Assembly (NCBI RefSeq): GCF_041886205.1
Contig: NZ_CP169031.1
Direction: 5' to 3' (one strand)
Length of the DNA: 64,000 bases
Source of the DNA: Escherichia coli
Lineage (GTDB): Bacteria; Pseudomonadota; Gammaproteobacteria; Enterobacterales; Enterobacteriaceae
Below are positions 21,999 to 22,887 of this stretch, piece by piece. Made by a program: the position numbers and the translations under genes. The first letter of the stretch is position 1. Each line of letters starts with the position of its first letter. The notes beneath the pieces are model-generated. The model ran no database searches and was not told the DNA's origin. It saw nothing but the letters and a program-made list of their open reading frames with translations.

Positions 21999-22080
21999 GT
22001 TTTGTTGGCCCGGTTTGCACCGGGCGTTTCACAAACAATCAACTGGTTTGTAGTTCCTGCGGCGAGATGAATTATTAATA

Positions 22081-22689
22081 TTATCGTGGTGCCGATGATG
22101 CGATAGCCTGTATGATGTTATCAATATCGTTATCGTTCAGCATGAATATAGGTACACCATTAGAGTTTGCATTTTTTTCAGTGCTCATCAAACAAAGCCC
22201 CTCATACATGCCGCGAGTTTTTTTGAAATTGGCGACTGATGGAGTGGTGTAATTTCCTTTAAAGTGCATTCCGGCTGATTCATAAAAAGGAACCAAATCA
22301 GACTGGCAAATCAAAGCGACCTCATTTGGAAATGCAAGTATTTCTGCCAGTATATTACTTCCAAGTCCATTACCACGATATTGCTCATATACATATATTT
22401 TATGACAGTACAACGGAAAATTTCCCGATGGATGTCCGAAGATTAAGGCGTATCCGAACAAGTTTTCTTCATTAGTAAAGCCCATAATGCGCAAATGACC
22501 GGCTCGGTAACACTCTTCAAAAACGTTAATTATGTAGCTTCTCGCTGCTTTCAGCTCCTCTTCTGTCGGGAACATCATCAACCCCATAAGCGATGGAGTA
22601 TAGGCCAGATCCTGAAGAATCCCATTAGCTTCATTTTCGAAAATTAGCGGTAAGTGCGGTACAATTTCATTTGCCGAGGTATTAGACAT
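22081..22689 (-). CDS. GNAT-family N-acetyltransferase (accessory cargo)
   Basis: Acetyl-CoA binding motif YEQYRGNGLGSNILAEI; AT-rich flanks; lies where P1 has res/mod. Confidence 0.7.
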   Translation of the reverse strand: MSNTSANEIVPHLPLIFENEANGILQDLAYTPSLMGLMMFPTEEELKAARSYIINVFEECYRAGHLRIMGFTNEENLFGYALIFGHPSGNFPLYCHKIYVYEQYRGNGLGSNILAEILAFPNEVALICQSDLVPFYESAGMHFKGNYTTPSVANFKKTRGMYEGLCLMSTEKNANSNGVPIFMLNDNDIDNIIQAIASSAPR

Positions 22690-22887
22690 AGTATGGTGAG
22701 TCCTTTGTTTTCAAAGGACTCATGTTATCAGTGATAATCGTTTGTTGTAATAGTGTTGATAAAATAATTTTCTATTATGTAAGCAAGCTCATTTTTATGA
22801 CGGGTAATGCAAAAAAAATAGAATCAAAAAACTAAAAAATAATAATTCATGGGGTTTTACACCATCAAAAGTCCCCACTATAAATTA

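Follow-up and report, generated by a model that had tools for sequence, protein, structure and literature searches.

The 64,000-nucleotide stretch of Escherichia coli DNA analyzed here (contig NZ_CP169031.1, assembly GCF_041886205.1; hereafter the window) belongs to a P1-like phage-plasmid, in reverse orientation relative to the P1 map, and carries between lxc and mat a lone gene for a 202-aa GNAT acetyltransferase (22081 to 22689, minus strand; hereafter the GNAT). The gene occupies a cassette slot with exact borders and interchangeable content, has no partner gene, retains an intact catalytic motif, is under purifying selection and has moved among different kinds of mobile DNA. On the basis of this context, the reading that we favor, at a probability of roughly 40%, is that the GNAT is a mobile single-gene conflict effector, probably directed against phages or other mobile genetic elements (MGEs), which would acetylate an amine on a cationic target other than nucleic acid. 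Its protein family is uncharacterized, structurally distinct and absent from defense catalogues.

The lxc-mat slot and its occupants

In the window, the slot is filled by a cassette that covers everything between the lxc and mat stop codons without including either (21999 to 22887; 889 bp, GC content 0.38). Its borders are the convergent stop codons of lxc on the left (21750 to 21998, plus strand) and of mat on the right (22888 to 23529, minus strand; codirectional with the GNAT gene and upstream of it), both genes being recognized from the list of open reading frames (ORFs) and by comparison with the P1 record. An earlier reading made from the letters alone (the sequence-only reading) had described a lone, low-GC, 202-aa GNAT gene between lxc and mat, at the position of the P1 restriction-modification (R-M) genes, and in these respects it was borne out: the product of the ORF at 22081 to 22689 contains QYRGNGLGSNIL and matches GNAT families in Pfam, the 1-kb bin at 22001 to 23000 has the lowest GC content of all 64 such bins in the window (0.382; flanks approximately 0.49 to 0.52), and res and mod lie between mat and lxc in the P1 reference record (NC_005856). 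The same reading had given the P1 content as res-mod-IS1-isaAB; res and mod are there as expected, no IS1 or isaAB is listed, and mod is interrupted by IS5 in that strain.

Slot boundaries were extracted between the lxc and mat stops in nine elements (this one plus eight others), which showed base-exact borders and interchangeable content. The slot is reduced to an empty 39-bp spacer in pAVS0578-B, and holds GNAT allele 1 in the window (889 bp), GNAT allele 2 (about 86% nucleotide and 84% amino acid identity; 872 bp) in pUTME-12-1 and E. albertii pESA138_1, a RelA/SpoT protein in phage SJ46 (1271 bp), a SIR2 protein in pGD27-62 (1402 bp), a PIN protein in JL22 and the plasmid of strain 2012C-4227 (1044 to 1054 bp), a DUF2971 protein in pC21-4 (1190 bp) and res/mod in P1 (about 6 kb). 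All of these cargoes have a GC content of 0.35 to 0.40. The comparison of the mat-lxc interval across P1-like genomes proposed in the sequence-only reading thus reveals a hypervariable cassette slot. With the flanks as query, 703 plasmids from E. coli, Salmonella, Klebsiella, Shigella and Cronobacter were found to have both lxc and mat; 21 of them have the GNAT in the slot, as two alleles and on both IncY-typed and IncHI1B-typed backbones.

All four alternative single-gene cargoes match PADLOC defense or candidate-defense models (SIR2, ThsA/PDC-S25; PIN, PDC-S34/PD-T7-3; DUF2971, PDC-S31; CapRel, PDC-S33). The SJ46 slot protein has the exact sequence of PDB 7ZTB and is thus CapRelSJ46, a fused toxin-antitoxin encoded by the SJ46 prophage and experimentally proven to be a defense system (PMC9712102); in a PDB search of the slot-mates, CapRel alone was found to be solved (7ZTB, 9ERV). 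The GNAT resembles CapRelSJ46 in being a single gene on the same strand of the same slot, with low GC content and its own leader, and CapRelSJ46 is a prophage gene that benefits the lysogen (PMC9712102). The two differ in that CapRelSJ46 is a RelA/SpoT pyrophosphokinase acting on tRNA whereas the GNAT has an acetyltransferase fold and chemistry, and in that CapRelSJ46 has both proven defense activity and a PADLOC model whereas the GNAT has neither. EcoP1I, the res/mod system of P1, lies in the same slot but consists of two DNA-targeting genes on the opposite strand, spanning about 6 kb, in contrast to one 0.6-kb gene without DNA-binding features. EcoP1I protects the lysogen. Since the alternative occupants match defense models, the proposal in the sequence-only reading that the gene is defense or anti-defense cargo is a reasonable one: the cargo slot and the defense-like slot-mates are there, and the functional part of the proposal draws on location and neighbors.

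An acidic GNAT with family-specific extensions

The GNAT protein matched Pfam families Acetyltransf_10, _1 and _7 (i-E of 6e-6 to 4e-5), and its acetyl-CoA motif A (Q103-Y-R105-G-N-G108-L-G110) fits the pattern Q/R-x-x-G-x-G/A, with R105 and G108 kept in at least 91% of 45 family members. The AlphaFold2 (AF2) model (pLDDT of 88) has the GNAT alpha/beta fold, its core being extended by three helices at the N terminus (residues 4 to 62) and one at the C terminus (186 to 199). A fold search of the AlphaFold database recovered family members at TM scores of 0.8 to 0.95, with the next matches at about 0.5. About 75 residues outside the GNAT core are specific to the family and are without counterpart in its arylalkylamine- and polyamine-type neighbors. 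The structure of this very protein has been solved: PDB entry 9S30, chain A, matches all 202 residues at 100% identity and has a 30-residue N-terminal extension (2026 copy of the PDB sequences). This entry was absent from a structure library closing on 2026-04-08, and so must be recent; a full-text literature search found no paper on the 9S30 protein or on the lxc-mat slot. The GNAT is mentioned neither in the iLund4u hotspot preprint nor in the one on EVADES.

Besides 9S30, the closest solved relative by sequence is serotonin N-acetyltransferase (AANAT; 1cjw, phmmer E value of 0.003). In that alignment, H96 and Y136 of the GNAT fall on the catalytic residues His122 and Tyr168 of the enzyme, the latter within the stretch in which LVPFYQRFGFH of AANAT aligns with LVPFYESAGMH of the GNAT. 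Together with AANAT, the best sequence and Foldseek neighbors of the GNAT are SSAT1/2, SpeG and PaiA, all of them weak (E values of 0.003 to 0.4, TM scores of 0.4 to 0.5); polyamine and arylalkylamine acetyltransferases are prominent among the fold matches, though not clearly separated from other GNATs. The protein is acidic (isoelectric point [pI] of 4.95, net charge of -9; family median pI of 5.3), which suits cationic amines such as these enzymes act on, and E20, D186 and D188 are near-invariant acidic residues in the family. The GNAT differs from these neighbors in residing on mobile elements rather than being a housekeeping gene, in its approximately 75 unmatched residues and in matching no curated model. 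The weak resemblance to AANAT and SSAT, the acidic surface and the conserved acidic residues suggest a cationic amine as substrate rather than tRNA or DNA. We therefore propose that the GNAT may transfer the acetyl group of acetyl-CoA to an amine of a cationic target other than nucleic acid, perhaps a small molecule resembling a polyamine or a basic protein of phage or host, and that specificity would come from the family-specific N-terminal helices and C-terminal helix.

The search against GNAT subfamilies suggested by the sequence-only reading confirmed membership of the superfamily and assigned the protein to no curated resistance, toxin or housekeeping subfamily. The best NCBIfam curated models scored only 12 to 13 bits against cutoffs of 86 to 171; the housekeeping models RimI (12.5 versus 86.4 bits) and ElaA (PRK10314; 13.4 versus 171) were among them, so that no housekeeping acetyltransferase is a credible best match, and the best resistance model was ArsN1a (12.4 bits versus a cutoff of 170), with no AAC model among the matches. 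In PHROGs, the protein falls into phrog_10454, annotated as function unknown.

Distribution and mobility of homologues

Every homologue is a stand-alone gene on mobile or variable DNA, and across 14 different genomic contexts neither a partner ORF nor any other neighbor is conserved. A search of 5,426 complete E. coli genomes gave 18 copies, every one plasmid-borne and none chromosomal, and identical copies are shared by E. coli, E. fergusonii and Salmonella. The contexts include a Raoultella lambdoid prophage, where the gene is a divergently oriented moron (with HicA nearby in one variant); three different phage-plasmid settings carrying P7-type C1 repressors; a phage contig, where it lies between lysis and tail genes; a Pseudomonas element near HipBA; Klebsiella IncFII plasmids, next to repA and about 5 kb from McrBC; the Enterobacter mori chromosome, beside two giant NACHT proteins; a Serratia chromosome, by an IS3 element; Citrobacter IncF plasmids, between two IS4321 copies and near AbiEii; and Aeromonas pAsa4c, next to a methyltransferase-helicase-GIY-YIG cluster. 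Homology between loci ends within about 30 nt past the stop codon and reaches 45 to 120 nt upstream of the AUG, and these limits at both ends of the gene indicate that the mobile unit is the gene plus its conserved leader.

The family is small. A word-seeded search of 5.8 billion protein clusters matched 23 clusters (90% identity), and a full hidden Markov model scan of 1.84 billion representatives found 57 clusters (50% identity) at an E value of <1e-10, most of them full length (190 to 217 aa). Named sources are all Gammaproteobacteria (E. coli, Salmonella, Klebsiella, Serratia, Pectobacterium, Erwinia, Pseudomonas, Aeromonas, Vibrio and Idiomarina). Among well-separated homologues, the ratio of nonsynonymous to synonymous substitution rates (dN/dS) is 0.10 to 0.26, which indicates purifying selection on the gene and speaks against diversifying selection.

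Gene decay is nonetheless common. Truncated or disrupted copies make up 12 of 68 plasmid matches, and there are clusters of shortened proteins (159 to 182 aa). A set of clinical Klebsiella pneumoniae plasmids of 160 to 161 kb carries recurring unannotated remnants that cover only residues 66 to 169 of a homologue (e.g., NZ_CP031801.1, 22723 to 23034). In the P7-like colistin-resistance phage-plasmid pHYEC7-mcr1 (NZ_KX518745.1, 1166 to 6525), ISApl1-mcr-1-pap2-ISApl1 is inserted inside the GNAT gene, leaving remnants of 291 and 372 nt, from which it follows that the gene is dispensable for maintenance of the element. Truncated and interrupted copies would be expected if the GNAT were a decaying, functionless passenger that had hitchhiked into the slot, but the dN/dS values, the retention of a full-length ORF with its catalytic motifs in the 57 clusters and the identical copies in three host taxa make this very improbable indeed.

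A function in detoxification or resistance unrelated to phages is a more serious alternative, and one that we consider unlikely but well worth keeping in view. In that case the GNAT would be a moron of direct benefit to the lysogen, acetylating a cationic antibiotic, a microcin, a toxic amino acid analogue or a polyamine. Acidic GNATs are typical among enzymes acting on polycationic drugs or polyamines, and the acidity of this protein fits that pattern, as does its weak likeness to SSAT/thialysine, SpeG, PaiA, tabtoxin-resistance and aminoglycoside acetyltransferases; copies with flanking IS4321 and IS26 are also found on plasmids of IncF and other resistance types. Conversely, no curated NCBIfam resistance model comes near its cutoff, the gene is rare (the 23 clusters noted above) and shows no linkage to resistance transposons, the mcr-1 insertion in pHYEC7-mcr1 has hit and destroyed the gene rather than carrying it as cargo, and the slot-mates of the gene are defense genes.

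Leader, hairpin, and expression signals

The 10-bp stem (22698 to 22721) that the sequence-only reading had reported, with the only Shine-Dalgarno (SD)-like AAGGA inside it, is real and forms part of a longer, exact inverted repeat in the 5' untranslated region (22697 to 22722, minus strand). Inverted-repeat search and RNA folding define a hairpin with a perfect 11-bp stem (arms at 22697 to 22707 and 22712 to 22722, 100% complementary) and a 4-nt AAAA loop; it is unique in the window, and by our own estimate chance alone would give about 0.004 such repeats in 900 bp. The leader RNA folds more stably than its shuffles (z = -4.3), with a local fold of -16.5 kcal/mol. On the mRNA, the 3' arm CAAAGGACUCA holds the AAGGA (22701 to 22705), 11 nt before the AUG (22689 to 22687), and the pairing probability of the SD region (positions -16 to -5) is 0.74, the fourth highest of 43 long ORFs in the window with the GNAT included (median, 0.50). 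Across 12 homologues this probability ranges from 0.37 to 0.76, against the same window median. The 11-bp stem is specific to allele 1, and allele 2 has ...AACGAAGGAGTTTTTCTATG without it; minimum-energy folds bury the SD also in allele 2 (CUCCUUC/GAAGGAG) and in one distant phage-plasmid homologue, and the SD is weakly buried in the Raoultella, Serratia and Klebsiella group, with a different pairing partner sequence each time. Restrained translation through an SD-hiding hairpin is therefore likely for allele 1, where it would keep synthesis of the GNAT low, and unproven as a family-wide feature.

What does travel with the gene is a noncoding leader (window, 22690 to 22735; locus L004, 7945 to 8000; loci L007, L018, L021 and L023) comprising the box CTGMTAAYATCAG, an A-rich run and the AACGAAGG SD. 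The box accompanies the gene in Raoultella, Serratia, Klebsiella and Enterobacter loci, and its local version in the window is CTGATAACATGAG (22719 to 22731, minus strand). On inspection it is not a LexA box, the CTG-N7-CAG spacing being wrong, and an Rfam search of the slot gave no family match.

Expression of the GNAT in the lysogen is plausible on sequence grounds. A consensus scan placed a promoter-like site in the AT-rich spacer (TTGATG and TATTAT separated by 18 nt; 22839 to 22868, minus strand; 9 of 12 positions matching), and the slot contains no C1 operator, the nearest being upstream of ref (24377 to 24393); both features support expression of the gene on its own account. In the window as a whole, the P1 C1 operator consensus has 14 matches (10716 to 61488), against 0.33 expected by chance. 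There may also be read-through into the GNAT from the C1-controlled, late mat promoters, and no intrinsic terminator was found between mat and the GNAT. Sequence inspection identified a GC-rich hairpin directly after lxc (GCCCGG-TTTGCA-CCGGGC, 22008 to 22025), which probably terminates lxc and marks where the GNAT transcript ends; both the empty slot and the allele-2 slots have a related GCCCGG...CCGGGC hairpin.

Restrained expression, to which the SD-occluding hairpin points, would fit an alternative in which the GNAT is a self-inhibited abortive-infection toxin. Such a protein would acetylate aminoacyl-tRNA as TacT, AtaT and KacT do, and its own N- or C-terminal extension would hold it in check until triggered by a phage protein, in the manner of CapRelSJ46. 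This is consistent with a slot shared with that fused toxin-antitoxin, with the roughly 75 family-specific residues, which the AF2 model packs confidently against the GNAT core, and with the frequency of truncated or disrupted copies. The GNAT also has in common with TacT, AtaT, ItaT and KacT the fold, the acetyl-CoA motif, carriage on mobile elements and a possible link to phage defense. It differs from them in lacking an adjacent RHH/DUF1778 antitoxin or a sequence-level match, in being acidic and in its additional N- and C-terminal elements. Neither the PDB (at E values up to 10) nor NCBIfam yielded a sequence match to a GNAT toxin, and the best toxin structure in Foldseek, 7byy, ranked only 38th, at a TM score of about 0.4. 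Basic surfaces are used by tRNA-binding GNAT toxins, and the low pI of the protein and its family thus argues, if indirectly, against such a role. Taken together with the lack of any conserved antitoxin-like ORF, these results make a self-inhibited toxin improbable, and the toxin-like acetyltransferase without an antitoxin envisaged in the sequence-only reading was not upheld, the likeness to TacT/AtaT-type toxins being that of a generic GNAT fold. A classic two-gene GNAT toxin-antitoxin system is excluded by the lack of a conserved partner ORF. Upstream ORFs at other homologue loci are unrelated and mostly without a family match; one of them, a 95-aa ORF upstream of the homologue on a Serratia phage-plasmid, was considered as an antitoxin and rejected since it overlaps the leader that is noncoding elsewhere.

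Proposed conflict effector and alternatives

The conflict-effector reading is favored because a stand-alone module that moves among temperate phages, phage-plasmids, plasmids and defense islands is found here in a slot otherwise held by defense genes. As we envisage it, leader and gene would constitute a self-contained, horizontally mobile module in the hypervariable slot, from which the resident prophage would make the GNAT as an effector against phages or other MGEs. A functional precedent is provided by Brc113, a lone GNAT integron cassette that conferred phage resistance in a screen (bioRxiv 10.1101/2024.07.02.601719). Like the GNAT, Brc113 is encoded by a lone gene on a mobile element; unlike it, it is a smaller protein on a different carrier. 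Homology between the two was rejected, as BLASTP against the cassette sequence recovered from the supplement gave an E value of 0.71, that is, no detectable similarity.

Several observations weigh against this reading. The precedent of Brc113 does not come from a relative. A tblastn search of 50,697 phage records, P1 included, returned no homologue, so the gene is not part of P1 itself. No family in PADLOC-DB v2 matched allele 1 (E value up to 1) or allele 2 (up to 0.001), which, given that the slot-mates do match defense models, leaves the GNAT as an unannotated occupant of a defense hotspot. A survey preprint likewise lists type III R-M, CapRel, dGTPase and PrrC as the main defenses of P1-like elements and does not mention an acetyltransferase (bioRxiv 10.1101/2025.09.12.675607). 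Several homologues are in insertion sequence (IS)-rich, resistance-plasmid settings. The argument from location is itself weak, as hotspots also gather resistance, virulence and anti-defense genes, and the neighbors of this slot, ulx and darB, are anti-restriction genes.

That the slot adjoins these Dar genes leads to a further alternative, in which the GNAT would serve counter-defense by acetylating and disabling a host immune protein, as AcrVA5 does with Cas12a, or by neutralizing an inhibitory cationic metabolite, and would thereby aid establishment or replication of the phage-plasmid. AcrVA5, itself a mobile-element GNAT that acts by acetylation in phage-host conflict, is a precedent for enzymatic anti-defense of this type. 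P1-like elements carry many anti-defense genes (bioRxiv 10.1101/2025.09.12.675607), and homologues of the GNAT are present on conjugative plasmids. Even so, we regard counter-defense as quite unlikely.

Returning to the conflict effector, a more specific form of it would be a new kind of single-protein immune effector, whose family-specific N- and C-terminal elements would sense a phage component upon superinfection, after which acetylation of a phage structural or DNA-binding protein, or of the polyamine pool of the cell, would halt the phage. We offer this version as a speculative one, doubtful at present. Such a sensing and acetylating mechanism is not represented in current defense catalogues. 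A prophage hotspot with single-gene defense cargo is already known; the GNAT family would, if the reading were confirmed, contribute a new effector chemistry.

Flanking genes and other features of the element

Gene order around the slot is darB (14512 to 21279, plus strand), ulx (21313 to 21753, plus strand), lxc, GNAT, mat, ref, c8 and cre (24888 to 25919, minus strand), where c8 is an ORF without annotation in the window that presumably corresponds to the gene of that name on the P1 map. The length of mat varies: it is annotated as 213 aa in near-identical plasmids, the longest ORF in the window has 222 aa (22888 to 23556), P1 Mat (P1 2716 to 3468) has 250 aa, and in JL22 mat is annotated as two pieces. 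The 5' end of mat thus seems to be different or frameshifted in many P1-like elements; its 3' end, which adjoins the slot, also diverges along with the cargo. Segments near the slot, besides the slot itself, are also swapped between P1-like elements. In pUTME-12-1 (5116 to 8155), a DUF4145 protein, a PAS-domain chemotaxis protein and a recombinase are found where ref, c8 and cre are expected, and in E. albertii pESA138_1 (1 to 2811) F18-type fimbrial genes and a DsbA-family gene lie upstream of ulx, where darB is expected.

Elsewhere, the element carries a complete type I R-M system that is not in P1 (hsdM, 35587 to 37149; hsdS, 37146 to 38354; hsdR, 38476 to 41592; region GC content 0.42 to 0.44), so that replacement of the P1 type III genes by the GNAT leaves the element still equipped with restriction. 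The three tRNA genes in the window (Met-CAT, Thr and Asn; 55418 to 57283) are the same as in P1.

Implications

Hotspots of temperate phages are a productive source of new immune systems, and the lxc-mat slot has already given CapRelSJ46, which later became a model for direct sensing of a phage capsid. The GNAT is the only occupant of this slot without a defense annotation, a characterized relative or a partner gene, and is a promising, though still unproven, candidate for a new phage-defense enzyme encoded by one gene. With an identical protein already deposited as 9S30, its discovery may already be in the hands of others. For annotation, the result means that about 3% of P1-like phage-plasmids, including those of clinical and livestock isolates, carry a gene labeled merely "GNAT family N-acetyltransferase". 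If the GNAT does defend its host, acetylation of a protein or metabolite by a stand-alone enzyme would join the known chemistries of bacterial immunity.

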